Below the pieces are notes generated by a model that worked only from the letters and a program-made list of their open reading frames with translations, was not told the DNA's origin and searched no databases. Shown one piece after another: positions 35,459-51,024 of a stretch of DNA of 64,000 bases; within the stretch, counting starts at the first letter, position 1, and each line of letters begins with the position of its first letter. A program made the position numbers and the translations under genes. The DNA comes from Candidatus Thorarchaeota archaeon SMTZ1-45 (GTDB taxonomy: Archaea > Asgardarchaeota > Thorarchaeia > Thorarchaeales > Thorarchaeaceae): assembly GCA_001563335.1 (NCBI GenBank), contig LRSL01000013.1, forward strand, positions 1 to 64,000, read 5' to 3'.

Positions 35459-36268
35459 CTAGGAGTCATGTCCGAGTAACCTGAGCAGTGTAACCTCACT
35501 GAGTAATCCAAGTCTTTCAGCAATGGATTCCACTGCTTTCACTGCAGGTGATTCTCCATTAAGCTCAAATAATGGAGCTCCGCGGTAGTTGACTTTCGAG
35601 AGTTCTTCATCACTGGGGATTAATCCAATGAGCAGCATGTCTTCTGCTGCAAATTGATTTCCTAATTCCTCCTCCATATCTAAAGGAAACCTATTCCCAA
35701 TCACTACAATCTTTTTAAACTCGATATGAACCTCCTTTGCTAAGTCCCTTATCCTCAAGGCTGCCTCAAAAGCAGCTCTTGAAGGGTCGACAACAATAAT
35801 GAGAACATCCACATTTCGATTTGTACGTCTACTCAGATGTTCAAGACCCGCACTCATATCTAACAAGGTAATCTCATAGTTCTTGCTTAGGGTATCCAAG
35901 ATTTGTGTTAGGAGCCGATTTACATAGCAATAACACCCTTCTCCTTCGGTTCTCCCCATAGCAAGGAAGTCAAACTTTGGGTTCTCGACGAGTGCTTCGA
36001 ATATCTCTCCCTCAAGAACATCTTGTTTCGCTACTTCTCCCGAATATGTGCCCTCATCTATATCCTTACGAAGCCTAGTCGCAATTGATCCAACTGACTT
36101 CACTACTTCTATTCCAAGTGCTCGTGGGAGATTCATAACCGGGTCAGCATCAACAACGAGAAGGTCTCTTTTTGTCTTCTCAGTGACGATGCGTGTAAGA
36201 AGAGCAGCTGTTGTTGTCTTTCCCACACCACCCTTGCCTGACACCGAGATTACGAGACGTTCTCTCAT
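35459..36268 (-). CDS. cooC: CooC/AcsF-type nickel-insertion ATPase for CODH/ACS (start refined to ATG 36268)
   Basis: SGKGGVGKTT; DADP; EGEGCYC; D..AGLEHLSR. Confidence 0.9.
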   Translation of the reverse strand: MRERLVISVSGKGGVGKTTTAALLTRIVTEKTKRDLLVVDADPVMNLPRALGIEVVKSVGSIATRLRKDIDEGTYSGEVAKQDVLEGEIFEALVENPKFDFLAMGRTEGEGCYCYVNRLLTQILDTLSKNYEITLLDMSAGLEHLSRRTNRNVDVLIIVVDPSRAAFEAALRIRDLAKEVHIEFKKIVVIGNRFPLDMEEELGNQFAAEDMLLIGLIPSDEELSKVNYRGAPLFELNGESPAVKAVESIAERLGLLSEVTLLRLLGHDS

Positions 36269-36279
36269 ATGAGTTAATT

Positions 36280-37695
36280 TCACTCCTCTTTCCATTTTCC
36301 CTCTTGAAGAAATTTTGGAATCCCACTTGAGTCACGTGGACCAACTTTGACAGTCCAACCACTGACCTCCTCTGTTTCGCCGCTGATTCTTGCAGCCATT
36401 CCTGGACTAATCAATATCTTGTGATTCACTTTTTCAGCCACTTTATATTCCTCTAGAGCTTCAGCGACACCATCAGCTGTTAGCTTTCGACCCGCCACTG
36501 CAGACTGGACACTCATTCCCTCTGTATCAACCACAAGCAAGTATGCATTGACACCTGCTTGCTTGATGTCACTCTCGACAGTAAAGTATGTCAGAGCAAA
36601 ATTAGTTGTATACATTACAGGTGATTCAGAATCCACTTCTCCAAATTCCATCAATCCTGGCTCGACTGCTACTGGCTTTACAGGATCTGTGTAGAGGTTG
36701 CTACGGAGAAATGTTAGAGGGAGATTGGTCCACATATCTACGCTGTGCAAGACAAGTATGTCTGTGTACCTTACGATCTGAGCTGATGCAGTTAGGACTT
36801 CATCCCATTTAGTCAGCTCAGGGGCTTCGTCCTTCTTATAATCCGCCCAGACTGTAATTGGAGCACCAAGTATTGGATAACCGAGTAGCTCGTTGTCTTC
36901 GATTATTGATGAACGTCTCAATTGTGTGAAATCATCAACTGTATTTCCAAGACCTGTTCTGGAAGTGGTACCTGGGTCGAGGACAATATCCTCCACGCCT
37001 ATAGCACGAAGCGTACCCACAAGTGAAGCAAGATTGTTAAGACTCCCCGGTGCACATGCCACAAGTGGTAGATTGTGTTTGGCTGCAAGCTCACCAACTT
37101 CCGCCCATGTTTCTAAGGTGGCTGCATAGAGCAGAGGACGTTTGTCTGCTATAGCTTTAGCTGCTGCAGCAAGCATCTTTGGATCTAAGGAACAGAGAAT
37201 TATTGGCCAGTCAGTCAGTTTGGTCAGTTTCTTTGCTGCGGCAGCAAAGGTCTTTGGGTCTTGAGAAACCCCCCTAAGAGCAATCCCATCAAGATGGAGG
37301 TTTGTACCAATATAGACATAGGTCCATTCTTCTATGGATTTGACTCTCGCAGCCAATCCCTCTGCATCAAGTGTGTCTGGTGCATCAAGGAAGAATGCAG
37401 TTGGATTGCTCCATCTCAAATCATGCCGATAGAGTACTAGTTTTCCTCCAACACTCACAGCTTTCTCCCCAGTCCCGATTACAACTTCTCTGATTGGCGG
37501 TCGAACTAAATTCTTGAGTTTCTCTAGTTTCTTTGCATACTTTGCCTCATCAAACAGAGGTGTACAAGTTTTGAGTTTAACTGTGTGTTCAGCCATCTTT
37601 GTAGCAAACGCCATGCAGTTTGCCTCACCACAAACTTGACAGTTTGTACCTGGGAGGAGTGGGTAGATCTCAAGTGGTCCTGGCAATTTAGCCAT
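36280..37695 (-). CDS. cdhE: CODH/ACS complex gamma subunit (large corrinoid Fe-S protein); start refined to 37695
   Basis: LPGTNCQVCGEANCMAFA; VLYRH; LYTDPVKPVAV; TTNFALTY; PGMAAR; VGPRDSS. Confidence 0.95.
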   Translation of the reverse strand: MAKLPGPLEIYPLLPGTNCQVCGEANCMAFATKMAEHTVKLKTCTPLFDEAKYAKKLEKLKNLVRPPIREVVIGTGEKAVSVGGKLVLYRHDLRWSNPTAFFLDAPDTLDAEGLAARVKSIEEWTYVYIGTNLHLDGIALRGVSQDPKTFAAAAKKLTKLTDWPIILCSLDPKMLAAAAKAIADKRPLLYAATLETWAEVGELAAKHNLPLVACAPGSLNNLASLVGTLRAIGVEDIVLDPGTTSRTGLGNTVDDFTQLRRSSIIEDNELLGYPILGAPITVWADYKKDEAPELTKWDEVLTASAQIVRYTDILVLHSVDMWTNLPLTFLRSNLYTDPVKPVAVEPGLMEFGEVDSESPVMYTTNFALTYFTVESDIKQAGVNAYLLVVDTEGMSVQSAVAGRKLTADGVAEALEEYKVAEKVNHKILISPGMAARISGETEEVSGWTVKVGPRDSSGIPKFLQEGKWKEE

Positions 37696-38885
37696 TATGT
37701 TCCCTCCGGTATTGATAATGTTGTCCAATCTGGATAGTCTTCTGGTTTGATTGATTGTCGTTCCCTCATCCAATCCACCAGGTCATGTACAGTCTTGATC
37801 GCAGCAGGATGCATCATCATGAAAAGATCGTTACCTGCTAGCAATAAAGCTAGAGCAGTGACACTCTCCCAGATTGGACCTCGGAGTTCTCTTGGACCCA
37901 ACTCAGGATTATTCATCCAAGCCTCTCTAGCGGCCCATGCATTAGTTGTGCCTGAGCTGATGGGGAATCGTAGCTCCTCGTCTCCCAGCAGCCCTGCAAG
38001 TCGCATCCTTTGCATTATTGTAAAGGCATATTCTAGACCATATCCAAGAGCTGCAGTTGTAGGATCTATAACTATCTGCTCTGGAGTCAACCATTCGAAG
38101 AGTCTTCTATTGAGTTCCTTTTGTTGATTAATGTCAATCGAAGTCCATGACAAAACTACTTGATCATGTTTCTTGGCTGCTTCTGCAATTTCCTCGTAGA
38201 CATCTACTGTTGCAGAACATAGAAGCGTCCTCTCACCTTCACAGACTTCAGCCGCCTTTGCTAAAACTGGTCCGTCTTTTTCAGGGTCCCCTGCAGATCC
38301 AATCAAGATTGGTACTTTTACAGCTTGAAGAACCTCTTCAATTGTCTTGGCAGCATCTTTTGGTGAGGTGTCACCAAGCTGGCGATCAGTGCTAATAAGA
38401 TGGAGCGTGACCACATCTGCACCAAACTTGTCGACAACTAGTTTTGCCCACTCTGCTGGGTCGTCAAGAACCTCTTTGTAATGCATCTTGACCATCTTTG
38501 CTAGTGAGATAGGCATGTCAAAAACATCTGCAGCAATTATGGGTGGGTGTTTTGGAGGTGCTTGAAACAAGTCCCAAGCCGGAGCAGTATGTCCTCCAAT
38601 TGTTACAGTTTTGCTTCTTGTTCCACCTTGACCTTTCTTTGCTCCAAGAGTGATTTCTTGGATGACCTGCGTGTATTCACCCAATGGTGGTGTGAATGAA
38701 GCTGGGATTAATGACTTAGGCATTTCAAGTGCTGGACGAGCTGCAGCCTTTGCTATCTGTTGTACCATAGGTCGGAGAGCAAGTCTAAGCTCGTCAAGCT
38801 CTATAGTAACATTCTCAAGGACAAGTTCAGCAAAATCGCCGAACATATCATCCAGCGAAGTGGTCCTTTCCTTGTCTGTTGTCAT
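37695..38885 (-). CDS. cdhD: CODH/ACS complex delta subunit (small corrinoid Fe-S protein)
   Basis: DVFD; DPAEWAK; GDPEKD; DINQQKELN; DPTTAALGYGLEY; NAWAAREAW; MMMHP. Confidence 0.95.
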   Translation of the reverse strand: MTTDKERTTSLDDMFGDFAELVLENVTIELDELRLALRPMVQQIAKAAARPALEMPKSLIPASFTPPLGEYTQVIQEITLGAKKGQGGTRSKTVTIGGHTAPAWDLFQAPPKHPPIIAADVFDMPISLAKMVKMHYKEVLDDPAEWAKLVVDKFGADVVTLHLISTDRQLGDTSPKDAAKTIEEVLQAVKVPILIGSAGDPEKDGPVLAKAAEVCEGERTLLCSATVDVYEEIAEAAKKHDQVVLSWTSIDINQQKELNRRLFEWLTPEQIVIDPTTAALGYGLEYAFTIMQRMRLAGLLGDEELRFPISSGTTNAWAAREAWMNNPELGPRELRGPIWESVTALALLLAGNDLFMMMHPAAIKTVHDLVDWMRERQSIKPEDYPDWTTLSIPEGT

Positions 38886-40288
38886 TTCTTCTTGTCACCT
38901 TTTCCCGTTCTCCGGATAATTACTTTCTCAGCATAGATTTTGGCGTTCTTGAAGATAATTTCAAGTCCACCACCTACGCCTCCAACCATGGCTGTCATCT
39001 CTCCTGGAACTGCTATATAGTCAGTCCCGGCATCAGCCGCTAACACGGCTGCTTCAGCTTCTTCTTCCAACTCAACCCATCGGTTAACAACAGGATGACT
39101 CTTTTGTTTAAGAAATTCCTTAAGGTCCCCAATATTCATCGCATCATTCTCTGTGGCTATCCTATCCCTCACATCCTCAGGTATGAAGTCTACGATCCTC
39201 TCCATTACAGATTGAGGAACCCATACAATACGATTCCATCCATCATCAACCTGCAAGAACTTAGGAGATCGCATATATTCGATTGATATGCCATGGAATC
39301 CAGGAACCTGACGACCGCCAGCTGTTGAGTCCGCCATGCTTGAGAAAGGCAGTCCATTGACTGTATCACCCTTGAAGTCACGATGCACTATTCCTAGACC
39401 ATCCACTTCTGGAATCACGAAAGCAATGGCCTCAAAACAGCCACAACTAGTATGAGGTTTTTCAAAGGCACTATAGAGCGCAACCGAATTCACTTTCCCA
39501 AGTGACTTCTCAGTGTATGCTTGATTGACGCCAACATACTCTCCACGAAACTCGTCTATTGTTTCACCTTTCGGAATGGCATAGAGAGGTCCCTTTGGAT
39601 CAACTCGAGCTGCTGCTCTGCCATCAAACCAACTAATTGCTCCACAATTGGCATATCTCTGTGGTGTGATTGTACAGACATGTGTTGGAGCGAATGACTG
39701 ACAGAGTGAACATCCATAGAATGTATCGACTTCTGTATCACTGAGTCCTCGTGCACGTTCATCTCGCTGATTATATCGATTTATTGCATCATCATAGCGT
39801 TCAGCAACTACCTCTGGATCTGTGATGAATGTCACTTGAATTCTTTCAATGATGTTCATCTCACTCTTGAAAAGCCTCATCAAGACCTTTCCTAGAAAAT
39901 CAAATGAGTTGAATCCCTTCTCAAACGACTTCTTGCTGAGCCTTAACCAGATGTCATATCGCTGGTTAAGATGCATCATACCTTCTACGAAGTTGACATA
40001 TTCATGAATACGTCTCTCAATGACTCCTTCTAGATCTGGCTCAATCTCCTTACCAGCTACTTCGACAACTATTCCAAGAGGATGGTAACTTCCTTCCTCC
40101 ATGTCTTTCAAATCAGGACCTATTATGGTGACTTTTTCATCCTCGATATCGCCCATATCCCGAGCGATTGCAAGTTCGAATTTCTGTTCCATCTTCGGTC
40201 CACCGAGCTCGACAAACATATCTTTACCGCGAACTCGCTCACCTTCATATACCACACCAATATCTACAGGAATGTCTTCGAATGACAA
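38882..40288 (-). CDS. cdhC: CODH/ACS complex beta subunit (acetyl-CoA synthase)
   Basis: YEGERVR; ERRIH; FYGCSLCQSFAP; HTSCGCFE; GGRQVPGF. Confidence 0.96.
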   Translation of the reverse strand: MSFEDIPVDIGVVYEGERVRGKDMFVELGGPKMEQKFELAIARDMGDIEDEKVTIIGPDLKDMEEGSYHPLGIVVEVAGKEIEPDLEGVIERRIHEYVNFVEGMMHLNQRYDIWLRLSKKSFEKGFNSFDFLGKVLMRLFKSEMNIIERIQVTFITDPEVVAERYDDAINRYNQRDERARGLSDTEVDTFYGCSLCQSFAPTHVCTITPQRYANCGAISWFDGRAAARVDPKGPLYAIPKGETIDEFRGEYVGVNQAYTEKSLGKVNSVALYSAFEKPHTSCGCFEAIAFVIPEVDGLGIVHRDFKGDTVNGLPFSSMADSTAGGRQVPGFHGISIEYMRSPKFLQVDDGWNRIVWVPQSVMERIVDFIPEDVRDRIATENDAMNIGDLKEFLKQKSHPVVNRWVELEEEAEAAVLAADAGTDYIAVPGEMTAMVGGVGGGLEIIFKNAKIYAEKVIIRRTGKGDKKK

Positions 40289-40289
40289 A

Positions 40290-40838
40290 TTACTTACCTC
40301 CTCCTACGAGTTTAAGAATCTCGTCGAGAACAGCATGATACTGCTTCTCCTTCATATTCGGGAAGGACCATTTTGCATGAGGCTGATAATGTCGTCCTAA
40401 TGCTATTGCAGTTAGATGAGTCCCAAAGTTCATCACAGAAGAGAGTAGGGTCCACTGCATATAATATGGGAGTCCATAGATGATTACCATATCGTATGGT
40501 CCTGTCCCAGATGGTCCTACCCAATCGGGGTCTTGTAACCGGAGTGCCAACTCCATTGCTCCCATTGATCTAGCATTCTCGAAGTCTTTCTCCAAGAACG
40601 CTTTGATTGCGCCACCAGTTGCAATGACAGGCATCTTCATTGCATTTGAAAGGGCAATTGCATAGTCAATCATATCACCCGTTCCATGCTTTTCTGTCAC
40701 AGCCTCAGAACCCACAATCAGAAGTGGTTTCTTGGCTTTTGAGAGGTCTCTCTTGAGGACTTCAGGTTTTGTAAGCGATTTAGCACTATCTGGCCCACAA
40801 ATCTCTCCTGTCTGCCAAGGTACAGGTCTCATCACCAT
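40290..40838 (-). CDS. cdhB: CODH/ACS complex epsilon subunit (start refined to 40838)
   Basis: PWQT...GP; AKKPLLIVG; L.DPDW.G..G.GPYD; YQPHAKWSFPN. Confidence 0.92.
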   Translation of the reverse strand: MVMRPVPWQTGEICGPDSAKSLTKPEVLKRDLSKAKKPLLIVGSEAVTEKHGTGDMIDYAIALSNAMKMPVIATGGAIKAFLEKDFENARSMGAMELALRLQDPDWVGPSGTGPYDMVIIYGLPYYMQWTLLSSVMNFGTHLTAIALGRHYQPHAKWSFPNMKEKQYHAVLDEILKLVGGGK

Positions 40839-43180
40839 TAGGTTCCACCTCCCATTATTTGCTCCTTTAGGAGTGTTGGGTCTATAATCCTCCGCTCTTT
40901 CCACTTGTTCTCCTTCATCTGAGCCAGTATCTTGTCTTTCAGAGTGATTGGAATATCCGTATCACGTCTGATGTATTTCCAGACATCATCAGGGAAGAAG
41001 CCATAGTATTTCTCATGAATATCGATATAATGGCTTAGTTTAATTGACCGTCCCTTTCCTGTATCGTTGGGTCGAAGAACAAGTTTCGCTGTCATTACAT
41101 TCGCTTCTGCAACTGTTTCTGCTGCATAGAACAAATGTTCTGGACCCGGCGCAGTCAACACTCGATCTCCAGTACGTGCATCATAGACTGTCCAAGCTCT
41201 TTCTTCTTCAGCTTTTCCAAGCAACATTCTTCGGTATTTCGAACCGTGTGGCCCCACAATCACAGGAACCCCGAGTCTCCAGAAACCTGAAGCAATCGAA
41301 GCCGCTTTCTGAGACATAGCTCCCCAAGAGATACCAACTGCACCCACACGATTGTGAATATAATCGGCTATCTCTGCGTAATTTCCACGAAGGTTTCTTT
41401 TAGCGAAGATTGCTGCAATTTTGATAGCAGCACCAGCGATATGTGGATTGGATACGCATGATCCGACGTTGAGTACGCCGCCTGCATCGAATTCACCACT
41501 ACGTCGCTCGTAGATTGATTGTCCGTTCTCATCTTTTACATGTCCAGCTGATATTGCTGCGCAACCTGATGTTACGATGATATAACGTCGTTTAGCAAAC
41601 TCTTCAGCCATGTCATGAACATCCTTACCTCCCTGGGGGTAATTTGCACAACCAACATGCGCAATCACACCAGGTATCTCACCAAAGACGATTGGCTGAC
41701 CGACATTTCTGATTTCAGTGTCTTGGATAGCTCCTCGACCAGTCCGCACCATGTGTGTTTCATCTTTGCAATCTTGCTGAGCTGCAACAACCATCCAACT
41801 GTGTAAATCGTAGTCATTTGGACACGCAGACTCACAACGTGCACATCCAATGCAGTTCTGATAGACCTCCCGGAGTGGTTCAAAATTGCCTAACTGAGCT
41901 GCAAGTACAGCTTCCATTACAGGTTGATCATTTGGACATGCCCTAATGCACTCACTGCATTTTTTACAATTTTCAGCCATCTTCTGAATCTGTTTCTTTG
42001 ATGGGAAAAACTTCATTTTCCTTCTCTTTGGCATGACCGCAAGAGCGACCCTTGTGGCAACTTCACCAACCTTATGATGATCATGGATAAAGGCACCATC
42101 TATTTTGCCTGAAACAAGCTCCTCCACTATTGAGTCGACAGGGTCATCCGACCTCTCAGGTAATCCCATGACAGCTTTGTCACTAGTTGAGATGACAGGT
42201 GCTTTGACTTTCTTCGCCTCATTAACAACATTGGTCTGAACACACTGTTCGTCAACTACAACGACATCTGCCATCCCACTTCGAATATATCGAAGCTGCC
42301 ATGAGATAGGTCCAATTACCTTTGCATTTGGATCTCGTCGTGTGATATCCCATGCAGTGCAACACATTCCTCCAACCTCAACCTTGCTACCAATTTTCTT
42401 TTCGGTAATATAATCGGTTATCGAAGCGGCTGGTACTATATTGTGACCAATAGTCAATATGATGGCTTTACTAGTGTCCATCATGCCTATTCCTGACTCA
42501 ACAAGTGGTGCGTCAGGATCAGCTTTTGGAAAACCGAGAGTCGAAATTTGGACAAGGTCTGCAATCTCCATACTGACTTGGTCCACCATTCCAACATGGA
42601 GCACTTTGCTTTCAAAATCCAACCAACTCCCCTCTTGACCAGTATGTGTAGCTGAAAGGGTATGTGCCAATTGAGTTTCGCAATAATCAAGTATAATGCT
42701 CGCATCCTCAAGTTTTCTTGGTCTCATGCCTGTGACTAATCGAGAAACAGGTGCATGTATCTCAATTCCCGCTCCCTGAATGAGATCCGTACGAGGTCCA
42801 TACTCCTCAATCAGATGGTCGACCAGATGCCGAGCATGTGCAAGATGAGCTGAGCAACCTATATTGGCTGCTGCTAGCACAATCCTTGCTTGTTGACCCT
42901 TGATATCAATCCCACAAGCTCCTCTCTTGTCACCAGATAAATCACACTTCCCAAAAGTACAGAGACAACAAACCTGACAATAAGGCATGTATGAAGGGTG
43001 ATAACGAGATAGTAGCTTGTGATCCCATGCGCGGAGGTCAGTTGGATTTGGCATTGGTGTTGGACCCATAGGTTCATCCCATTCATCATCGACTATAGTG
43101 CCAATGCGAACTTCAAGTCCCTTGAACCTGCCAAGTCCAGTTTCTGCTTCGTCCGCTTTGAAGTAAGCTTTCTTCTTCAT
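40838..43180 (-). CDS. cdhA: CODH/ACS complex alpha subunit (CO dehydrogenase); start refined to MKKKAY at 43180
   Basis: GPTPMP; CCLCTFGKCDL; GACGI; GHN; GMCCT; DEQC; two CxxCxxCxxxCP ferredoxin motifs; GCAN; SGCA; GSCVSN; SQKA. Confidence 0.96.
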   Translation of the reverse strand: MKKKAYFKADEAETGLGRFKGLEVRIGTIVDDEWDEPMGPTPMPNPTDLRAWDHKLLSRYHPSYMPYCQVCCLCTFGKCDLSGDKRGACGIDIKGQQARIVLAAANIGCSAHLAHARHLVDHLIEEYGPRTDLIQGAGIEIHAPVSRLVTGMRPRKLEDASIILDYCETQLAHTLSATHTGQEGSWLDFESKVLHVGMVDQVSMEIADLVQISTLGFPKADPDAPLVESGIGMMDTSKAIILTIGHNIVPAASITDYITEKKIGSKVEVGGMCCTAWDITRRDPNAKVIGPISWQLRYIRSGMADVVVVDEQCVQTNVVNEAKKVKAPVISTSDKAVMGLPERSDDPVDSIVEELVSGKIDGAFIHDHHKVGEVATRVALAVMPKRRKMKFFPSKKQIQKMAENCKKCSECIRACPNDQPVMEAVLAAQLGNFEPLREVYQNCIGCARCESACPNDYDLHSWMVVAAQQDCKDETHMVRTGRGAIQDTEIRNVGQPIVFGEIPGVIAHVGCANYPQGGKDVHDMAEEFAKRRYIIVTSGCAAISAGHVKDENGQSIYERRSGEFDAGGVLNVGSCVSNPHIAGAAIKIAAIFAKRNLRGNYAEIADYIHNRVGAVGISWGAMSQKAASIASGFWRLGVPVIVGPHGSKYRRMLLGKAEEERAWTVYDARTGDRVLTAPGPEHLFYAAETVAEANVMTAKLVLRPNDTGKGRSIKLSHYIDIHEKYYGFFPDDVWKYIRRDTDIPITLKDKILAQMKENKWKERRIIDPTLLKEQIMGGGT

Positions 43181-43243
43181 GCTTCGTTCAGTTCCTGTGC
43201 GTGGTAAATCGGCCAACACATAGCACCATAATAAGGTTGCGAA

Positions 43244-43273
43244 TCTCACACAAAGTTGTGAGAATGTGCACAT
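43244..43273. promoter_or_regulatory. Palindromic operator candidates upstream of cdhA
   Basis: tctcaca-caaagt-tgtgaga (43244-43263) abutting atgtgcacat (43264-43273). Confidence 0.5.
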
Positions 43274-43356: not shown

Positions 43357-44154
43357 CTAATTTCTAGTTTCTTCAATTAGATTTGTTTTAATCTCACGAA
43401 TCGCTTTCATTCCTATAGAATCAGGATCTAGATCTATGGGTGCTACACCTTTTCGATCCGCCTGCCTTATTTTTTCATCAAGAGGAACCATTCCAATAAG
43501 TGGAATTCCCTCACTCTCAACCCATTTTCTAATCATCTCATCATCATCAGAGCTTGCGACCTTATTACCAACTGCAAAAACCCGTCCAACATCTATATCC
43601 TTAGCAAGGGTTTTAATTTTTCCAAGAACGTCAAGTGAACGTCGACCAGGTTCTGCTACCACCAGTAATGCATCCATCCCTCTAGTTGTTCCTCGACCAA
43701 GATTCTCGATACCTGCATCCATATCCATTACGAATGCTTCATCAGTCCCAAGAATAAGATGTCGCATGAGCGTCTTGAGAAGTGTTGCTGAAGGACACAT
43801 GCATCCTGAGCCTCCAATCTCAACAGTACCAGCAACCAAGAGACTCACATTGTCAGGACCCTCTATAGCAAATTTGTTGGCAAGGTCATCTACATGAGGA
43901 TTGAGTTTGAAGAAACCACTATATCCTTGAGCTCCGTCAATTTGGAGTCGTTCCTCGATAAGTGTTTTGTTTTCAGTGAGTGGAACAATCTTCTTTGCAA
44001 CCTCTGAAGGTATCCCTAGGGCGGACCAGAGTGTGTAACTTGGATCTGCGTCAACTGCAAGTATCTTGAGTCCATCTCTGCCAAGTAGTCTTGCTAGTGT
44101 TCCAGCGATGGTAGTTTTACCAACGCCTCCTTTTCCTGCGACAGCGATTTTCAT
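43357..44154 (-). CDS. cooC: Second CooC-type nickel-insertion ATPase
   Basis: MKIAVAGKGGVGKTT; DADP; GGSGCMCP; DMDAGIENLGRGT. Confidence 0.92.
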   Translation of the reverse strand: MKIAVAGKGGVGKTTIAGTLARLLGRDGLKILAVDADPSYTLWSALGIPSEVAKKIVPLTENKTLIEERLQIDGAQGYSGFFKLNPHVDDLANKFAIEGPDNVSLLVAGTVEIGGSGCMCPSATLLKTLMRHLILGTDEAFVMDMDAGIENLGRGTTRGMDALLVVAEPGRRSLDVLGKIKTLAKDIDVGRVFAVGNKVASSDDDEMIRKWVESEGIPLIGMVPLDEKIRQADRKGVAPIDLDPDSIGMKAIREIKTNLIEETRN

Positions 44155-44169
44155 TTTATAGTCTCCATT

Positions 44170-45366
44170 CTATGTTCTCTTCGTTCGTACAAGCTTGTGC
44201 AGTTTCATCAAAACTTCACTATGTTTCTCAGTGGCCACACTGGCTCTCCATTTTTTGAATTCTATCTCTTTCATATCCACTCTAATCATTGTTCCAGTGC
44301 CTGCAATGATAGCATCACTTGTGTGGACTGAAACAGTAGCCCTCTTGTCAGTCAATCCACCAGGTGGTCCTACATACAGAATTTGAGTCTTTGCAAGCGC
44401 CTTAGCTACAGAGCCTGGAAGATGTGCTAGAACATCATCACCTACCACTAGAGTAGTATCAAACTCTCCACTAGATATTCTATGCAACAACTCACCTACA
44501 ATTTCATGATCGTGAGTGGCTTTGATAACTCCCATAGTATTCGATTGAACAAACATTGGAAGCGCATATGCCTTTTTTCCAGTAGCTCGCAATGTTTCAA
44601 TAAGTTTGACCATTCCTGTGAGGTTAGTATCCTGATTTCCTGAATTTAACACTCCACTGCCATAGAAGATAATGATACAATCAGCTTTTTGGAGGTTTCT
44701 TACAAATCCTACCAACTCAATTCCAGGTATACCCAGAATCTTATCTTTGATTACTGATTTACCCTCAAGCTCAGAAATTACAGTATTTAGAAGTTCAACA
44801 TCTGATCCAATTGGAATGATGAGTCTGTGGTTTGCCATCTTCATTGTTTCAGTTTGTCGGACATCAACCACACCAATAGTTCGACTCTCTATTCCCTCAG
44901 GTATCTTCTCGCCACGCGGCAAGACAGCAAATCTGCTAGGATGCCGGTGTAGGCTCTCTGATGGGTCTGTTCCCCAGTAAATGATGAACTCACCATTGTT
45001 GCGAACATACTCGAGATCAATGTCAAGTCCTTCTGCATGAATAGTGTGTGACATTGCTTGCATGGGTCCCAAGTTTACGTTTGATCCAAAGTGTCCTTTG
45101 AGGGTCGCTGCAAGTTCAAGTCCCTCTCTAATTGCTTCATCAGTTGCATGAGTCCATCCAAAGAGAAGTAGGTTCGTTGTATTCATTAGAAGGTCTGCTG
45201 CTTTTTCTAGTTTCTTTTGAGTTGCTACTATTTTATGTGCTGTAACTGTTTCTAAATGCGTATGTCCCAATTTGCAGAGGCCAAGTGAATTTACACCTTT
45301 ACTAGAAATCTCAGCAGACACATCGTCACAGAGCAAAGAACAACCGTTGCACACGATATTTTCCAT
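44170..45366 (-). CDS. Formylmethanofuran dehydrogenase subunit B-like protein (FwdB/FhcB-like; Mo/W-ligand Cys apparently absent)
   Basis: CNGCSLLCDD...CKLG; VRNNGEFIIYWGTDP..LHRHPSRF; VDVRQTET; GTMIRVD. The expected CHGP motif reads NLGP. Confidence 0.78.
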   Translation of the reverse strand: MENIVCNGCSLLCDDVSAEISSKGVNSLGLCKLGHTHLETVTAHKIVATQKKLEKAADLLMNTTNLLLFGWTHATDEAIREGLELAATLKGHFGSNVNLGPMQAMSHTIHAEGLDIDLEYVRNNGEFIIYWGTDPSESLHRHPSRFAVLPRGEKIPEGIESRTIGVVDVRQTETMKMANHRLIIPIGSDVELLNTVISELEGKSVIKDKILGIPGIELVGFVRNLQKADCIIIFYGSGVLNSGNQDTNLTGMVKLIETLRATGKKAYALPMFVQSNTMGVIKATHDHEIVGELLHRISSGEFDTTLVVGDDVLAHLPGSVAKALAKTQILYVGPPGGLTDKRATVSVHTSDAIIAGTGTMIRVDMKEIEFKKWRASVATEKHSEVLMKLHKLVRTKRT

Positions 45367-45376
45367 TCAAAACCAC

Positions 45377-45835
45377 CTACCATATCTCAATAGCATCCGT
45401 GCAACAGTATTGCTCACAGACTCTGCAATTCAGTCTATCCGGTGGAAATCTCCGACATTTCTCTAGATTGATGATTTTCGATATGCCATTCTCAACCCTA
45501 AACACTGTGTCTGTACTCATGGCGGCTTTTCCCTCACTCGTAGGAGGTTCTGCTGCGACGTCCACCGGGCACACTACTACGCAATTGTTACATCCTGTGC
45601 ATTTACTCTCATCAAGTTTTATTCCGGTTGCTTCTGCAGAGAGCATCGGGGCAACTAGCTCTCTGATCCTTTCAAGGTTCTTTTCGAAACCAGATTCGAG
45701 GAGTGGCGGACAATCATCAGGGGAGATATCTCCTAGAGCAAGCTTTGTGGCAAATGCCATACACGTTTTTGGTTCACAGAGCCGGCAGTTCGTCTTTGGG
45801 AGCAAGTTATAGAGTTCCATTGGGTTGAGTTTCAC
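45377..45835 (-). CDS. FwdG-like ferredoxin with an N-terminal CdhE/RnfB-type Fe-S domain
   Basis: LPKTNCRLC..KTCMAFA...CP; CTGCNNCVVVCPV; CRVCEQYC. Confidence 0.8.
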   Translation of the reverse strand: MKLNPMELYNLLPKTNCRLCEPKTCMAFATKLALGDISPDDCPPLLESGFEKNLERIRELVAPMLSAEATGIKLDESKCTGCNNCVVVCPVDVAAEPPTSEGKAAMSTDTVFRVENGISKIINLEKCRRFPPDRLNCRVCEQYCCTDAIEIW

Positions 45836-45956
45836 TGTCTTATCTCCGTTATAGCTTATTTTGATATATCACAAGAATTATCCGGTATGACACAAGTCGT
45901 AACTAGTTGTCCTATACAGCTTTCCATATGGAACATTGAACAAATTGGTGTAGCTC

Positions 45957-48386
45957 TTGAGCCGCAGTAAAAAGTCATCGAAAAAGGAAACGAAGAAGGA
46001 TAAACTAGCTGTCTTTCTATGTCGCTGTGGTTCTAATATTGCCGATACAATTGATATCGACTCATTAAGGGAAAAATACGAAACCCAAGGAATTCCCCTT
46101 GTTGACGTTGACGACCACCTTTGTTCTGAACAAGGCGTCTATGATTTAATTGAGAAAATTAAGAAGAGTAGAGCCAAACGTGTTGTTATTGCTGGATGTT
46201 CACCGCTTCTCCACAGAGAGCTATTTGCAGATGCAGTGAAAGAGGCTGGAATTGACCCTGGTCATTTACACATGGCAAACATTCGTGAGCAGTGTAGTTG
46301 GGTTCACTACGACGATCCAGAAGCAGCAACGAAAAAAGCCGCTGCAATAATTGACACTGGGATTGCTGAGGTTCGTGATGCTAACCCAATCCCAACCCAA
46401 GGACTTCCAATGACACAACGAGTTATGATAGTTGGAGGTGGGGTTGCTGGAATTACAAGTGCACTTGAGCTTGCTGATGCAGGTATAGATACTGTGATTG
46501 TTGAACGTGAAGGTTTTCTTGGCGGCCATATGGCAAAGTGGGACAAACTTTTCCCAACATTCGACTGTAGTATTTGTATACTAGGACCAATGATGGCAAG
46601 AATGGCGCGTCATCCTAATATTAGAATCATGACTCTGACTGAAGTGACTGATGTACGCGGCAACGTTGGTCGATATCGAGTTACTGTGAAGCAGAAGCCT
46701 CGATATGTGGACATAGAAACCTGTACAGGATGCAACAGATGCCTTGAAGTTTGTCCCGTTGAAGTTGCTGATGAGTATAACAATGGTCTTGGAAAACGAA
46801 AGGCTATGGTTCGACCATCAATCGATGCAGTGCCAATTGCTCCATACATAGACCCCAACAACTGCATTGGATGCCAGTCATGTTCTGGGGTATGTGAACC
46901 AAAATCTCTCCGATATGATGAGCTCGAGCAGACTGAGGTCATTGAGGTGGGAGCTGTTATTCTTGCTACAGGCTTTCAACCATTTGATCCCACTATCGTG
47001 GAAGAATTTGGTTATGGTCAGATTCCAGACGTCATAACATCACTTGAGCTTGAACGATTAGTCAATCCTGAAGGTCCAAGCGGGGGAAAACTTGTACGTC
47101 CCTCAAATGGAAAACCTCCTCGAAATATTGTATTTGTGCCATGCGTTGGAAGTCGGTCACACAGATTCAATCGTCCATATTGCAGTAGAGTCTGCTGCAC
47201 TGCTGCGGTTAAAGAAGTGATGCAGGTTAAACAACAATTGCCTGATTGTGAGGCTTATGTCTTTTATACAGACATGCGTGTGTTTGGTAAAGGCCAAGAG
47301 GAACTGTATGTTCGAGCTGCCGATGAATACAAGATTAATTTCATCCGAGGAACCATAGAAGTTGTCCATGACCCAATTTCAGGTACGGTTTCAGTTCGAG
47401 CTGAGGACACTCTTGTGAGAAAAATGCTTGAGTTTGAAACCGACTTGATTGTCCTAATGATTGGTATGGATGCTGAACCAAGCAATATAGAACTCTCAAG
47501 AATGTTCAAAACACCTCTGGATGAGAATGGATTCTTTCTTGAACAACATCCCAAACTTGGTCCCAGTACAACTGCCTCAAAAGGAGTTTTTCTTGCTGGA
47601 GTTTCTCAAGGTCCAAAGGACATTGCGGATACAGTAGCACATGCAGGTTTAGCTGCTTCCAAGGTGAAAACACTGCTTACTTCTGGCGATATAATTACTG
47701 AAGCATGTATCCCCTCCTTTAACCAAGATCTTTGTATTAGTTGTAGATTATGTGAACAGATCTGTACACCCAAAGCAATCAAGTTCAGCGACGAGAATAT
47801 ACCTGAAGTTGATCTTGCTGCATGTCGTGGTTGTGGGGCTTGTGCTGCGGCATGTCCTTCTGGCGCACTTGACTTACCCTGCTTATCGAATGAACAACTC
47901 GAGAATGCGACAAAGGCAGCAATTGAGTTCAACCCCCTTAAACCTGCAATCGTGGGATATCTCTGTCGTTGGTGTGCTTACATTGCAGCTGACAGAGCTG
48001 GAACTGCTCGTATGAAATATCCGCCCAACGTAATTCCTATACAAGTACCTTGCACAGGTCGAATCAATGTTGATACCCTTCTCACTGCGTTTGCTGAAGG
48101 TGCTGATGGTGTTACAGTCATGGGATGTCACATTCAAGACTGTCATTACAGATCAGGTGCTCGTTATGCAAAGGATAGGACTGATAATATGCGAGAAATA
48201 CTTGAGGTTGCAGGTATTGATCGGCGTAGATTGTATTTTGGTAGTGCGTCTGCATCAGAAGCAGATAGTTTTGCAGAACAAATAACTCAGTTCGTTAATG
48301 ATATTGTCAAACTAGGTCCACTTGGAAAGGAATCGCCTCGTAATTTGATTGGAAAACAAGATGTAGAAGGAGTTCCTGGGAGGTGA
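45957..48386 (+). CDS. hdrA: Heterodisulfide reductase subunit A fused to a C-terminal MvhD domain
   Basis: VFLCRCGSNI; NIREQCSWVH; VGGGVAG; LFPTFDCSIC; CVGSR..YCSRVCC; QGPKDI; MvhD: CRWCAYIAAD..G..R..YP, VPCTGRI, GCHIQDCHY. Confidence 0.93.
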   Translation: MSRSKKSSKKETKKDKLAVFLCRCGSNIADTIDIDSLREKYETQGIPLVDVDDHLCSEQGVYDLIEKIKKSRAKRVVIAGCSPLLHRELFADAVKEAGIDPGHLHMANIREQCSWVHYDDPEAATKKAAAIIDTGIAEVRDANPIPTQGLPMTQRVMIVGGGVAGITSALELADAGIDTVIVEREGFLGGHMAKWDKLFPTFDCSICILGPMMARMARHPNIRIMTLTEVTDVRGNVGRYRVTVKQKPRYVDIETCTGCNRCLEVCPVEVADEYNNGLGKRKAMVRPSIDAVPIAPYIDPNNCIGCQSCSGVCEPKSLRYDELEQTEVIEVGAVILATGFQPFDPTIVEEFGYGQIPDVITSLELERLVNPEGPSGGKLVRPSNGKPPRNIVFVPCVGSRSHRFNRPYCSRVCCTAAVKEVMQVKQQLPDCEAYVFYTDMRVFGKGQEELYVRAADEYKINFIRGTIEVVHDPISGTVSVRAEDTLVRKMLEFETDLIVLMIGMDAEPSNIELSRMFKTPLDENGFFLEQHPKLGPSTTASKGVFLAGVSQGPKDIADTVAHAGLAASKVKTLLTSGDIITEACIPSFNQDLCISCRLCEQICTPKAIKFSDENIPEVDLAACRGCGACAAACPSGALDLPCLSNEQLENATKAAIEFNPLKPAIVGYLCRWCAYIAADRAGTARMKYPPNVIPIQVPCTGRINVDTLLTAFAEGADGVTVMGCHIQDCHYRSGARYAKDRTDNMREILEVAGIDRRRLYFGSASASEADSFAEQITQFVNDIVKLGPLGKESPRNLIGKQDVEGVPGR

Positions 48387-48390
48387 TTAT

Positions 48391-49743
48391 ATGGACAAAT
48401 CTCGTGTTCTGATTGGTGAGAAGCCTGTCATCTCAATGGATGTAGTTGATGGCAAGATTCGACTGACATGGGAAACCTCACTTCTCAAAAGAACACTTGA
48501 TCATAACATCTCAAAGTGTGTCGGCTGTAGCCTATGCTTGCCATGTCCTTGGGAGGCAATCACCCTTGGTCCAATACAAGAAACTGCATCAGGTCGCATT
48601 GAGGGTGCGCCATTGGTAAATGTAGACCCAGATGTCTGTACCTTCTGCGGTTTGTGTGACTCCTCTTGCATTTTTGGAGCATTTGAAGCAAAGTATGAAG
48701 GTGACAGTGCAGTCAATGAGTTCATTCGGATTGAAGGAACACACGAGATTGATGAGGAAAAATGTGCTCCCTGTTTATTATGCGCCAAGATTTGTCCCAC
48801 AGACTCTCTTGAAGTAGAGGTCAAGGTTGATCGAAAAGAGAGTCTTGTGACCTACAAAGGTGAAGAACATGCTGAAGGTACAATAAAAGTAGATGAGGAT
48901 AAGTGTTCGTATTGTGGTCTCTGCGAGCTTTTGTGTCCTGAAGCTATCAAGATTTTCTGGTCTGACGAAGTAAAACCTCCTGACTTCAGACCAGCGGTTG
49001 GAATTAGAGTCGATGAGGATCACTGCGATTATTGTGGTCTTTGTCAAGATATCTGTCCTGATGATGCGATTGAGGTAAAATGCACCGAGTCGAGCACTCG
49101 AGAGATAAAGCAACCAACCATAACTGGAAAGTTGACACATAACGATGAAACCTGCTTGAAATGTGGACTGTGTGCAATTGTCTGCCCATATGAGGCATTG
49201 AAGGTTGAAAAACCATTCACAGGGGAAGTCAAAATTCCTCAACTTGAGAAATGTGATCCAACAGGATGCAATAACTGCTTCAATATATGTCCAGTAGATG
49301 CAATCTACCCTACCGGCACAGCAGATAAGATTGCCATACTTGACCATTGTGTTTACTGTGGAGCTTGCGAACATTCCTGTCCCTATGATGTTCTTGATGT
49401 GCAGCGAGAGGGATACAAGCTAGATGAGCTCGAGCGAGAAAGAGAATGGGAACGTGCACGTAGGCTCTTCTTTGATGCAGTCATAGGTAAAGATCCACCA
49501 CCAAGTGGTCTCTTTGAGAGAGATATTTCTGTAAAACCTATTCAGAGACTTCAGGTTAAGACATCATCCCGAAAAGATTGGGAATCTGAAGATGGTGAAC
49601 GAAATAGAGCTATGTTGTCTGCAAAGCGAGTTAAAGAATTACTGAAAGATGATCCTCGTCTACATCTACAGCTTGAACGGGGTAACACTGAGAAAGTTGT
49701 TGAAAGGATTAGGAACTCTCAAGAAGTGACTCAAGAGGAGTGA
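48391..49743 (+). CDS. FwdF-like polyferredoxin
   Basis: About 8 CxxCxxCxxxCP-type motifs; CPWEAITLGP; CDPTGCNNC; CVYCGACEHSCP. Confidence 0.85.
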   Translation: MDKSRVLIGEKPVISMDVVDGKIRLTWETSLLKRTLDHNISKCVGCSLCLPCPWEAITLGPIQETASGRIEGAPLVNVDPDVCTFCGLCDSSCIFGAFEAKYEGDSAVNEFIRIEGTHEIDEEKCAPCLLCAKICPTDSLEVEVKVDRKESLVTYKGEEHAEGTIKVDEDKCSYCGLCELLCPEAIKIFWSDEVKPPDFRPAVGIRVDEDHCDYCGLCQDICPDDAIEVKCTESSTREIKQPTITGKLTHNDETCLKCGLCAIVCPYEALKVEKPFTGEVKIPQLEKCDPTGCNNCFNICPVDAIYPTGTADKIAILDHCVYCGACEHSCPYDVLDVQREGYKLDELEREREWERARRLFFDAVIGKDPPPSGLFERDISVKPIQRLQVKTSSRKDWESEDGERNRAMLSAKRVKELLKDDPRLHLQLERGNTEKVVERIRNSQEVTQEE

Positions 49744-50107
49744 CTTCATCTTCAGTTCTAGTTACTGTTAAAGAAACTCCATGAAATTGTGGTGGTGAAT
49801 CATCAACTGGAATCGAAACGAGTGCAAGAGCCCAGGGACCATATGGGATGACTGCTAATCCCTCAGTGACTTTCTCATCACTATAAGCAGCTAGAACAAT
49901 ATGTCCTGCTTTAGATTTGATACTCGCATGACCTCCATCCTTAAGACCCAATCTCTGTAGATCGACCTTGTTCAATCTCACTCTAGCTGCACTGGTGAGG
50001 AACTCATTTGAGAGGATATTTCTAGCAGACTCTACATCCGCTTCAAAGGAGTGAGCAATGACTAGCTTCAGCTCAACATGTGGGAATAGAAAATCACCTA
50101 ATGCCAT
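49709..50107 (-). CDS. FwdD-like double-psi-barrel protein, degenerate (start refined to 50107)
   Basis: AARVRLNKVDLQRLGLKDG...S.AG...IPYGPWAL...PQFHGV; lacks the canonical TGRT..QG. Confidence 0.7.
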   Translation of the reverse strand: MALGDFLFPHVELKLVIAHSFEADVESARNILSNEFLTSAARVRLNKVDLQRLGLKDGGHASIKSKAGHIVLAAYSDEKVTEGLAVIPYGPWALALVSIPVDDSPPQFHGVSLTVTRTEDEVTPLESLLESS

Positions 50108-50241
50108 ATCTAAGTCATCCGAGCTATCGTGTATTTTATGATGCATATTATGTTTCTGTTATCACGATTTATCTATTGAGCCGCAATCAGCACGCTTTTT
50201 TAACATATGAGCGTTGGATTTCTAATTCACAGGTGGTTTCA

Positions 50242-51024
50242 GTGCGAATCGGAACGATATATGGCGATGTGTTTGCGGAACGAGTCATTGGAAATCTGAT
50301 CAATTTCAAGACATTCTGTGAGGGTTGCGAGCCTGTTTGTGCTGAGTGCAGGAGTGGCTATGGTTCGTTTGTTGGTGATATTGTAAGCATTCACCCCACT
50401 GATCCTCCCTCTCCAACTATGATTGAAAATCCTGAAGAGTTCATTAAGAACCTAAATCTAACTCCCTGCGATCTTCTCCTGATTGTAGCAATCCATCATG
50501 ATCTCCTAGCAGCTGTCGATTTGTTGGTTGAAGCCACTGGTGCAAAGGCGGTCTTAGTACCAATAGAAGATCCCACTTGGGTGCCACCTGGTTTAAGAGC
50601 GCAAGTGAAAGAAACTCTGGACAATATAGGTATTGAATCAGCTTTTCCCAAACCATTCTGTACACTTGAACTTGGAGAAGGGAAGCTAATCGATGAATTC
50701 ATCCAGACCTATAAAATCGGAAGTCCAATTCACTATGTAGACATGAATGACGATGTAATTGCTGAAATTGGTCCAGTAAGGTCCGCCCCATGCGGTTGCA
50801 CTTGGTATGTAAGTCAAAAAATCAGAGGGAAATCAATATCTGATACTGATGCACTATTTGATGAGATTGCGAAAGCACACCACTCATATCCGTGTACTGC
50901 ATCAATGGCAAAGGATAGAGAGATTGGAGATGCTCTCCTTCATATTGCTGGATACAATGCACGCTATGCAGTCTGTAATGCGACTGGGATTAAGGATTGC
51001 AAGTTCTCCACCGACAAAAACTGA
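50242..51024 (+). CDS. DUF166 family protein (start refined to GTG 50242)
   Basis: ERVIGNL; C..C...C..CR; IENPEEF; HHDL; FPKPFCTL; VRSAPCGCTWYV; HHSYPCTASM; LHIAG. Confidence 0.75.
   Translation: MRIGTIYGDVFAERVIGNLINFKTFCEGCEPVCAECRSGYGSFVGDIVSIHPTDPPSPTMIENPEEFIKNLNLTPCDLLLIVAIHHDLLAAVDLLVEATGAKAVLVPIEDPTWVPPGLRAQVKETLDNIGIESAFPKPFCTLELGEGKLIDEFIQTYKIGSPIHYVDMNDDVIAEIGPVRSAPCGCTWYVSQKIRGKSISDTDALFDEIAKAHHSYPCTASMAKDREIGDALLHIAGYNARYAVCNATGIKDCKFSTDKN

Follow-up and report, generated by a model that had tools for sequence, protein, structure and literature searches.

What keeps two genes for relatives of formylmethanofuran dehydrogenase (Fwd) subunits beside the genes for CO dehydrogenase/acetyl-CoA synthase (CODH/ACS), when their products appear to have lost the active site of the enzyme that they resemble? 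The question is raised by a stretch of 64,000 nucleotides from Candidatus Thorarchaeota archaeon SMTZ1-45 (contig LRSL01000013.1; hereafter the window), which corresponds to contig C13 of a genome of 3.54 Mb with a completeness of 87.7%. It encodes a FwdB-like and a FwdD-like protein in the company of a ferredoxin, a polyferredoxin and an HdrA-MvhD fusion. Our answer, which we hold at somewhat better than even (a probability of roughly 0.55), is that the pair is a catalytically dead Fwd remnant that is reused as a non-catalytic, probably pterin-free adaptor or wire for CODH/ACS, and its origin is best explained if it is what remains of the electron-input half of formylmethanofuran dehydrogenase. 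Such a scaffold or wire was one of two roles suggested in the original prediction, which was made from the sequence alone, and it has come out as the best reading, with precedents in FhcB (PMC6926001) and the 'Molybdop' protein (PMC12054007), as far as excerpts of these papers describe them. The two genes are:

44170..45366, minus strand: FwdB-like protein of 398 amino acids (TIGR03129 below cut-off, alignment to 5t5i_B, AlphaFold2 model, Foldseek)
49709..50107, minus strand: FwdD-like domain-IV protein of 132 amino acids (PF01568, alignments, AlphaFold2 model, Foldseek)

Against solved structures, phmmer matches the FwdB-like protein to FwdB/FmdB chains only (5t5i_B, E 3.4e-28). The FwdB/FmdB model TIGR03129 gives it 203.7 bits, below the cut-off of 327.8, as against 514.9 for the canonical FwdB of the same genome, and it has no Pfam match. 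One source annotates these genes as 'formylmethanofuran dehydrogenase subunit B', and the homologues of the window's protein carry mostly Thorarchaeota names at NCBI. Its N-terminus reads MENIVCNGCSLLCDD...LCKLGH, in which the [4Fe-4S] cysteines that had been noticed before are indeed present (C6, C9, C13 and C31); they are invariant in 95 aligned sequences and 97-100% conserved across 119 members of the Thorarchaeota-type family. Further on, the segment that should hold the metal ligand reads GSNVNLGP. In the phmmer alignment with Methanothermobacter FwdB (5t5i_B), VCHGP with Cys118 and His119 lies opposite VNLGP, i.e., Asn-Leu in the FwdB-like protein, and PMRGHYN with Arg288 lies opposite PMFVQSN, i.e., Phe, such that all three residues are replaced. 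MAFFT shifts the ligand loop by two residues relative to this alignment, and under either alignment the loop contains no Cys, His or in-frame stop, in agreement with the earlier claim that Cys, Sec and His are all missing from it. In the ligand column, Cys is absent from all rows of Thorarchaeota and of a further Asgard family, f12.

The loss of these residues can be set against the rest of the protein by means of the 59 columns that are invariant in six canonical FwdB sequences, which we scored in the 119 Thorarchaeota-type sequences. Among them, 26 are kept (at least 80%), 13 have been swapped for another conserved residue and 20 are variable. Those that are kept comprise the four Fe-S cysteines with the DD that follows, R-H at positions 141-142 and several Gly and Asp; those that vary comprise the RGH motif along with the Arg and His, the Cys column being Gly in this alignment. 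Moreover, a segment with the canonical-invariant residues G298, P300 and R307 is deleted in 42 of 46 Thorarchaeota rows.

The FwdD-like partner has changed along with FwdB. Its open reading frame (ORF) was listed as 49709-50146; however, 23 of 29 orthologues are 129-137 amino acids long and begin with MALGDF, so that the true start is at 50107, as the original prediction had placed it. PF01568 (Molydop_binding) matches it with 37.0 bits (cut-off 26.8), while the FwdD model NF042908 gives 53 bits, below its cut-off of 175. The canonical FwdD of the genome has TSGRTLKQG where the FwdD-like protein has AHSFEAD, GPYAN where it has GPWAL, and FKG where it has FHG, and the same replacements appear against 2ki8_A and 5t5i_D (TSGRTxxQG, GP(Y/W)AN and FKG), as had been described. 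We presume that the GRTxxQG, GPWAN and FKG motifs contact the cofactor; the original prediction had labelled the first of them as guanine-dinucleotide-binding.

Because the metal-ligand Cys and His and the substrate Arg are replaced, and because FwdA and FwdC are missing, we regard the pair as catalytically dead, and the changes in the sequence suggest that no pterin is held. No FwdA or FwdC gene and no gene with a CCG domain (HdrB/D) lies on this contig, which bears out the claim that fwdA, fwdC and hdrB are not part of the cluster; nor did the Pfam and NCBIfam annotation of the cluster reveal an FdhB or a CCG protein.

The fold has outlived the active site. The AlphaFold2 model of the FwdB-like protein has a predicted local distance difference test score (pLDDT) of 94.2 and a predicted TM score (pTM) of 0.91, and its top Foldseek matches are the FwdB chains 8rja_B and 5t5i_B (E 1e-29 to 1e-31, TMq 0.87-0.89). 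Lower matches are NuoG (TMq 0.59-0.70), FdhH and FhcB (6s6y_F, TMq 0.66). The FwdD-like model (pLDDT 88.6) matches the FwdD chains 8rja_D and 5t5i_D with a TMq of 0.84-0.85.

Confident folds would not be expected to persist if the two genes were pseudogenising paralogues carried along only by their linkage to the CODH/ACS operon, a reading that we consider hardly credible. What speaks for it is that no other genes of the cluster evolve as fast: in related loci the FwdB-like protein is 47-75% and the FwdD-like protein 48-76% identical, whereas the ferredoxin reaches 81-96% and CdhA 80-94%. Yet in a scan of one genome per species, which gave 35 loci of Thorarchaeota or Promethearchaeota, the orthologues have intact ORFs of conserved length in all 35, and gene order is that of the window wherever the contig reaches. 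In one relative (G033), an internal TAA was flagged, but an ORF of 410 amino acids spans the FwdB-like gene. Among the 25 closest pairs, the ratio of nonsynonymous to synonymous substitution rates (dN/dS, Nei-Gojobori method, NG86) is 0.08-0.18 for the FwdB-like and 0.04-0.19 for the FwdD-like gene, and 0.01-0.14 for the seven neighbouring genes tabulated. In nine genomes carrying both a FwdB-like and a canonical FwdB gene, dN of the former is 1.5-3.4 times that of the latter in 36 of 36 pairs; as 35 of these pairs show saturation of dS for at least one of the two genes, we rely on the dN ratios and on the single clean pair, in which omega is 0.098 for the FwdB-like and 0.027 for the canonical gene. 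The dN/dS values and the dN ratios together indicate that selection on the pair is relaxed, yet clearly purifying. Frequent frameshifts or stops are not seen, and dN/dS is far from 1. The FwdB-like and FwdD-like genes thus are not pseudogenes, given that all 35 loci have them unbroken and in synteny, that their dN/dS is low and that they encode confidently predicted folds, and homologues occur in several Asgard families. The check for pseudogenisation that had been proposed therefore found none.

What, then, might a dead Fwd body be kept for? Its surroundings offer an indication. The ORFs between 35459 and 51676, annotated by Pfam and NCBIfam profile matches, form two units, a minus-strand run and a divergent plus-strand unit, and those that concern us here are:

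45377..45835, minus strand: three-cluster ferredoxin of 152 amino acids, ending 10 nt upstream of the FwdB-like gene (PF04060 and Fer4)
45957..48386, plus strand: HdrA-MvhD fusion, an HdrA2-type flavin/Fe-S protein, divergent from the ferredoxin/FwdB-like/CODH operon (NF040770, PF02662)
48391..49743, plus strand: FwdF/FmdF-like polyferredoxin of 450 amino acids (NF042909, phmmer to 5t5i_F)
43357..44154, minus strand: CooC-type P-loop ATPase for nickel insertion, between the FwdB-like gene and cdhA (CbiA, ParA and NifH-family Pfam matches)
36280..43273, minus strand: archaeal-type CODH/ACS genes cdhA-cdhE (Pfam)

The minus-strand run begins with the ferredoxin, the FwdB-like gene, cooC and cdhA, continues with cdhB, cdhC, cdhD and cdhE, and ends with a second cooC-like gene; the gap between the ferredoxin and FwdB-like genes is 10 nt and that between the FwdB-like gene and cooC 15 nt. 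The plus-strand unit consists of HdrA-MvhD and the polyferredoxin, followed by the FwdD-like gene on the minus strand. As had been noted for the window, FwdF-like and FwdG-like ferredoxins and HdrA-MvhD lie beside CODH/ACS, and this is so in every Thorarchaeota locus that we examined. A search of sequencing runs for window positions 43300-50200 gave four DNA data sets, plus two more DNA runs from the study behind one of these, and no RNA data set.

The ferredoxin had been called FwdG-like, which holds for its C-terminal half with 2x[4Fe-4S]; the N-terminal half is an Fe-S domain of the type found in RnfB and in the corrinoid iron-sulfur protein (CFeSP) (PF04060). Correspondingly, its profile matches comprise FwdG (5t5i_G, 9sfi_U, 7bkb_L), CFeSP N-termini and RnfB. 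Twelve cysteines are invariant in 25 sequences, enough to make three clusters possible. HdrA-MvhD matches the HdrA2 model NF040770 over positions 2-777 of 777 with 891.9 bits (below the cut-off of 1100), and a FlpD domain (PF02662) occupies residues 665-787. The polyferredoxin has eight motifs of the CxxCxxCxxxC type, counted by eye, and scores 231.4 bits with the FwdF/FmdF model NF042909, below the cut-off of 375; its residues 17-356 align to residues 5-343 of the 349-amino-acid chain 5t5i_F (phmmer, E 4.7e-44), and a C-terminal tail of about 95 amino acids follows. This tail (window 49460-49743, residues ~357-450) is charged and lies beyond the part that can be aligned to solved FwdF/FmdF chains.

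Of the multimer predictions that had been proposed, we ran that of the ferredoxin against the FwdB-like and FwdD-like proteins, each entered as an alignment, with three controls. The ferredoxin docks onto the Fe-S domain of the FwdB-like protein with an ipSAE of 0.93, as compared to 0.02 for the best of the three controls; of 157 solved complexes, 116 attain the mark applied to this score, and of 215 mismatched pairs, 2 do so. At least 99% of the contacts are common to the runs, and the pLDDT of the partner is 86. In the predicted interface, residues 13-36 and 136-152 of the FwdB-like Fe-S domain meet the Cys motifs of the ferredoxin at 79-88 and 142-147, and 8 of 17 invariant FwdB-like residues fall inside this 37-residue interface (hypergeometric p 3.5e-5). 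Such an interface would explain part of the retained 'canonical' FwdB core without invoking a pterin. Since FwdB-FwdG complexes have already been solved, the pass may reflect likeness rather than binding, and the ferredoxin/FwdB-like interface is accordingly to be taken as model-supported.

The evidence supports the notion that the remnant owes its retention to its Fe-S domain and to the surface on which the ferredoxin docks. In this mechanism, the FwdB-like/FwdD-like body would no longer reduce CO2 and probably would not hold a tungsto- or molybdopterin; with its [4Fe-4S] cluster kept, the FwdB-like protein would offer a platform on which the three-cluster ferredoxin, the product of the gene immediately upstream, can dock, and the cluster of the FwdB-like protein may also serve as one relay. 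By analogy with the Hdr-Fmd supercomplexes of methanogens, the body might also hold the eight-cluster polyferredoxin linked to HdrA-MvhD, such that low-potential electrons could be carried between the flavin-based bifurcating HdrA-MvhD and CODH/ACS, in one direction or the other. We infer this coupling of bifurcation to CODH/ACS from gene linkage and co-occurrence, and binding of the polyferredoxin and HdrA, as well as any contact to CODH/ACS, is likewise putative.

The co-occurrence is best seen within the GTDB family of the organism. In 41 genomes of this family, counting the degenerate FwdB at E <= 1e-97, CdhC is found in 14, the degenerate FwdB in 13 and a canonical FwdB over the cut-off in 28. 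The degenerate FwdB is present in 13 of the 14 CdhC-positive and in none of the 27 CdhC-negative genomes, and the sole CdhC-positive genome without it is 81% complete. Where both are on one contig, they are ~5 kb apart. The canonical FwdB, by comparison, also occurs in genomes without CdhC. Within Thorarchaeota, then, it is CODH/ACS and not canonical Fwd whose occurrence the degenerate FwdB follows. In a wider sample of 251 Asgard genomes (matches at E <= 1e-35), 52 match the degenerate FwdB and 117 carry CdhC, and 43 of the 52 also have CdhC (tables read by eye); of the nine that do not, eight are 72-84% complete and one is 95% complete.

The organism also has ordinary Fwd genes, for which a search had been proposed. 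Canonical fwdD-fwdB-fwdA lie on contig C1 and fwdC on C42, each in single copy by tblastn, and the FwdB from C1 carries both SSVCHGP and PMRGHYN. This leads to the second role that had been suggested for the pair, an Fhc-like formyl-hydrolysing route in which the degenerate FwdB would scaffold the canonical FwdA and FwdC (and Ftr) for the conversion of formyl-methanofuran to formate. The genome does have one FwdA and one FwdC that could be so recruited, and FhcB is a FwdB homologue without the Cys, as the part of PMC6926001 that we draw on reports. But FwdA is the immediate neighbour of FwdB and FwdD in the canonical set, the distribution of the degenerate gene follows CdhC rather than canonical Fwd, and among the 15 cluster proteins neither FwdA nor FwdC was found, nor was there a Pfam or NCBIfam match to FhcA, FhcC or FhcD (Ftr). 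Furthermore, the pair keeps the Fe-S domain and the domain-IV partner, both of which are missing from FhcB, and the fold is closer to FwdB (TM 0.88) than to FhcB (0.66). We therefore consider this route very improbable.

The canonical fwd genes (locus L006, G000:C1:8000-26000) have neighbours that one would not expect of Fwd genes in an anaerobe, namely the genes for pyruvate dehydrogenase E1-alpha, E1-beta and E2 as well as genes of the phytoene desaturase family and phytoene/squalene synthase-like genes; contamination of the bin is 5.8%. Partners resembling HdrB/C are encoded in other parts of the genome, in which 41 CCG-domain matches, corresponding to ~21 HdrB/HdrD-like proteins, lie on C7, C29, C41, C55, C57, C69, C71, C77, C86, C109 and others, with none on this contig. 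HdrA-like matches occur on five other contigs (C29, C69, C77, C102 and C109), some of them beside CCG proteins, and two [NiFe]-hydrogenase loci are present.

If the pair is a remnant, one may ask whether intermediate stages survive. Eight loci represent other families or genera of Asgard archaea. In seven of them, the ferredoxin, a FwdB paralogue, HdrA-MvhD, the polyferredoxin and a FwdD paralogue occur together, and in six of the eight, CODH/ACS genes lie within the stretch that was fetched. In family f12, in which 18 of 19 genomes match, both the FwdB and the FwdD chain are degenerate. In f4, f7, f15 and f21, by comparison, the FwdB paralogue keeps Cys-His and has Ile, Ala or Glu in place of Arg288; in f4, f7 and f21, FwdD keeps R(T/S)xEQ(G/S) and GPW(A/F)N, with the Lys in two of three, whereas FwdD of f15 (L046) is without GPWAN and the Lys although its FwdB keeps Cys-His. 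The co-degeneration that had been proposed thus finds support, since Thorarchaeota and f12 have lost the motifs in both proteins and f4, f7 and f21 keep Cys-His in FwdB as well as motifs in FwdD. The eighth locus (L047, G045:C1:913500-933400) has FwdD, a FwdA-like gene (29% identity), an RnfB/FwdG-like ferredoxin and a FwdB paralogue that lacks the Arg and keeps Cys-His, with no HdrA nearby, and it may represent an intermediate architecture.

A FastTree phylogeny of 115 rows, rooted on the FdhA of the genome as a single distant outgroup and used for its starred clades only, agrees with such a series; its rows are representatives retrieved with the degenerate query, so the sampling is biased towards degenerate sequences. 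The window's FwdB-like protein falls in a starred clade of 11 rows from Thorarchaeota and f12, none of which has the Cys, His or Arg. This clade is nested in starred clades of 25 and 44 rows, with the Arg in 0 of the 44, and the canonical FwdB rows lie in the other clade of 60 rows. By sequence, the window's protein belongs to a large clade of FwdB paralogues without the Arg.

A scan of 80 metagenome loci, many of them on short contigs, can be broken down as follows:

Ferredoxin directly upstream and no FwdA: 39 loci; Arg288 in 0, Cys at the ligand position in 32, HdrA-MvhD nearby in 22, cdh or cooC in 9
FwdA adjacent: 26 loci; Arg288 in 26, Cys at the ligand position in 26, HdrA-MvhD nearby in 14, cdh or cooC in 2
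Unclassified: 15 loci; Arg288 in 5, Cys at the ligand position in 14, HdrA-MvhD nearby in 3, cdh or cooC in 1

Arg288 thus tracks FwdA (26 of 26, as against 0 of 39 with the ferredoxin upstream and no FwdA), and the ligand reads Cys-His in all 26 loci with FwdA. The gene order polyferredoxin-HdrA-FwdD-FwdB-FwdA recurs among the metagenome loci. In the group L069-L084, there is a Cys in the ligand column (SICH, SICR or SICQ) and Ala-Glu in place of Arg-Gly, and the FwdD partners are already without the RTxxQ, N and K motifs; since the ligand Cys is kept here with a degenerate FwdD, the order of losses may differ among lineages. The module itself is found on metagenome contigs such as L069 and L070. 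As it occurs in several Asgard families and on metagenome contigs, and as the one-carbon branch of the organism has ordinary Fwd genes, the suggestion of an unusual Wood-Ljungdahl variant was overstated.

The series also bears on the idea that a bis-pyranopterin is still bound without a protein ligand, catalysing or relaying an unknown redox reaction. There is a model for this in arsenite oxidase, whose bis-pyranopterin cofactor has no protein ligand, and the nearest outgroups, with Cys-His kept and the Arg gone, indicate that the chemistry had changed before the ligand was lost; in addition, the fold is fully preserved, and 26 of the 59 canonical-invariant columns are kept. However, the ligand, His and Arg columns vary within the family and have not settled on new residues, a conserved loop is deleted, and several of the retained invariants are explained by the ferredoxin interface. 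All three FwdD motifs were moreover lost in step with those of FwdB, which counts against a bound pterin to the extent that these motifs contact the cofactor, as we presume. On balance, this alternative strikes us as unlikely.

Several observations weigh against a pterin-free wire for CODH/ACS. The first is that 26 of 59 canonical-invariant columns are kept, including the Asp and Gly of the VVDVR, PGxD and DP motifs, which we take to be dinucleotide-binding, so that a cofactor or nucleotide could still bind. Secondly, in this 87.7%-complete genome, MoeA (MoeA_N), MoaC and the MoaA C-domain (Mob_synth_C) of molybdenum cofactor (Moco) synthesis were not found, but this absence says nothing about a pterin in the pair, because the same genome encodes, besides a further MopB protein, a canonical FwdB with its Cys ligand and an FdhA above the cut-off, which should need the cofactor. 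Thirdly, a match at E <= 1e-35 is missing from 74 of the 117 Asgard genomes that carry CdhC, 49 of these 74 belonging to family f9, from which it follows that CODH/ACS works without the FwdB-like protein and that the module is lineage-specific and no general requirement of archaeal CODH/ACS. Finally, cluster N7 of NuoG is described as lying off the electron path in the portion of PMC8357420 that we cite, so that a retained Fe-S cluster need not conduct.

As to the second point, MoeA is found in 7 of the 13 family genomes with a degenerate FwdB and not in the other 6. Sixteen of the 28 family genomes with a canonical FwdB are likewise without a MoeA match, several of them being 95-97% complete; either the cofactor is scavenged, or its pathway goes unrecognised.

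The last point opens the way to a purely structural role, in which the pair would only stabilise the HdrA-polyferredoxin assembly, with its cluster an off-path relic and a soluble ferredoxin feeding CODH/ACS. In addition to NuoG with its off-path N7 (PMC8357420), FhcB and the 'Molybdop' protein of Methanosarcinales have been proposed to be scaffolds in the parts of PMC6926001 and PMC12054007 that we draw on, and the elevated dN of the FwdB-like gene (36 of 36 genome pairs) would fit a scaffold as well. Yet the Fe-S cysteines are 97-100% conserved, and constraint is strongest on the surface at which, by prediction, the clusters of the FwdB-like protein and the ferredoxin meet; a conducting contact would account for this no less well than a structural one. 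We regard the purely structural role as possible, if doubtful, and prefer a non-catalytic adaptor or wire.

How does such an adaptor compare with known systems? With the tungsten Fwd of Methanothermobacter wolfeii (5T5I), the Thorarchaeota pair shares the B and D folds, the [4Fe-4S] Cys motif, the separate domain-IV D subunit and the accompanying FwdF-like and FwdG-like ferredoxins. It differs in lacking Cys118, His119, Arg288, the FwdD motifs and an adjacent FwdA or FwdC, in scoring below the NCBIfam cut-offs and in having its FwdB-like gene in a CODH/ACS operon. FhcB of Methylorubrum extorquens (6S6Y) has Ser in place of Cys118 and retains neither His119 nor Arg288, and its structure is that of a pterin-free scaffold without an Fe-S domain or FwdD, with FhcA, FhcC and FhcD as partners (PMC6926001, in excerpt). 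The Thorarchaeota FwdB-like protein has lost the same three residues; unlike FhcB (TMq 0.66), it keeps the Fe-S cluster and a FwdD-like partner and lies beside HdrA-MvhD and CODH/ACS.

The type II HdrA clusters of Methanosarcinales and anaerobic methanotrophic archaea (ANME) contain a Cys-less MopB-family protein, 'Molybdop', together with HdrA and MvhD; the passages of PMC12054007 at hand propose a structural, non-catalytic role and place its clade near FdhG/FhcB, accompanied by FdhB and HdrBC. The Thorarchaeota protein likewise is Cys-less and next to HdrA-MvhD. It is set apart, going by that partial description, in that it groups with FwdB paralogues and has FwdD-, FwdF- and FwdG-like proteins as well as CODH/ACS for company, with neither FdhB nor HdrBC in the cluster. 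A further pterin-less remnant of the MopB fold that carries an Fe-S cluster is NuoG/Nqo3 of complex I (N7, off path, as the cited part of PMC8357420 has it), which is distant (TMq 0.59-0.70) and, unlike the Thorarchaeota protein, occurs as a fused part of a larger membrane-complex subunit.

In composition, the module resembles the Hdr-Fmd/Fwd supercomplexes of methanogens (7BKB; PMC13580544 and PMC13518236, both in part), which also combine HdrA, an FmdF-type polyferredoxin and FmdB/D. In contrast to these, the Thorarchaeota module has neither FwdA/FwdC nor a CO2-reducing site, has CODH/ACS as its neighbour, and its FwdG-like ferredoxin bears an added RnfB/CFeSP-type domain. The sections of PMC13580544 that we used describe FmdF groups beyond methanogen Class I and Methanomicrobiales/Methanocellales as uncharacterised and name Asgard or Bathyarchaeales as the source of Class II FmdF. 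It is tempting, though speculative and on present evidence improbable, to picture in Thorarchaeota and several archaeal lineages a third kind of bifurcating CO2-fixing supercomplex, in which the Hdr-Fmd Fe-S spine is re-plugged into CODH/ACS. Its spine would consist of HdrA-MvhD, the FmdF-like polyferredoxin, the FwdG-like ferredoxin and the dead FwdB/D body, and bifurcated low-potential electrons might, without a soluble ferredoxin, reach the C-cluster of CODH or, by way of the ferredoxin's CFeSP-type domain, the corrinoid protein, which they would activate reductively.

A survey of the MopB family counts 83 Asgard FwdB homologues and mentions FwdB-family matches without the Cys (PMC10100899, in part). 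In the portions covered of the literature searched, including PMC10100899, PMC11291895, PMC7325909, PMC7886697 and PMC13580544, there is no description of a CODH-linked pair from Thorarchaeota, which the supplements might list.

The module bears on how Asgard archaea obtain or shed electrons of the very low potential that CODH/ACS requires. Tied to CODH/ACS in the genome and built of recognisable Hdr-Fmd wiring parts, it offers a concrete set of six proteins. The natural series, from canonical FwdB via forms that have lost the Arg and keep Cys-His to those in which Cys-His is lost together with the FwdD motifs, addresses how molybdo- and tungsto-enzymes turn into scaffolds, as in FhcB and NuoG. 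For annotation, it means that FwdB-like genes of this kind are no evidence of a second Fwd enzyme.

The remaining genes of the locus are as follows:

40838-43273, minus strand: cdhA (Pfam Prismane and Fer4)
40290-40904, minus strand: cdhB (Pfam CO_dh)
38882-40288, minus strand: cdhC (Pfam CdhC and ACS_CODH_B_C)
37695-38885, minus strand: cdhD (Pfam CdhD)
36280-37773, minus strand: cdhE (Pfam CdhD and FeS)
35459..36295, minus strand: second CooC/AcsF-like ATPase, encoded last in the operon and syntenic in relatives (Pfam CbiA and AAA_31)
50080-51024, plus strand: DUF166 protein, whose true start is probably later (PF02593, 162 bits)
51035-51676, plus strand: DUF3786 protein (PF12654, 84.6 bits)

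The first CooC-type ATPase (43357-44154) has the same position in related loci. The DUF166 and DUF3786 genes, which come after the FwdD-like gene, trail the module in most Thorarchaeota loci; among the 35 related loci, 22 have DUF3786 and 17 have DUF166 at a query coverage of at least 70%. The DUF166 protein of the window shows a weak NCBIfam relation to the DfsP (seleno)protein family, and in the metagenome loci L068, L070 and L084, which have the same type of module, two tandem DUF166 genes lie upstream of cooC.

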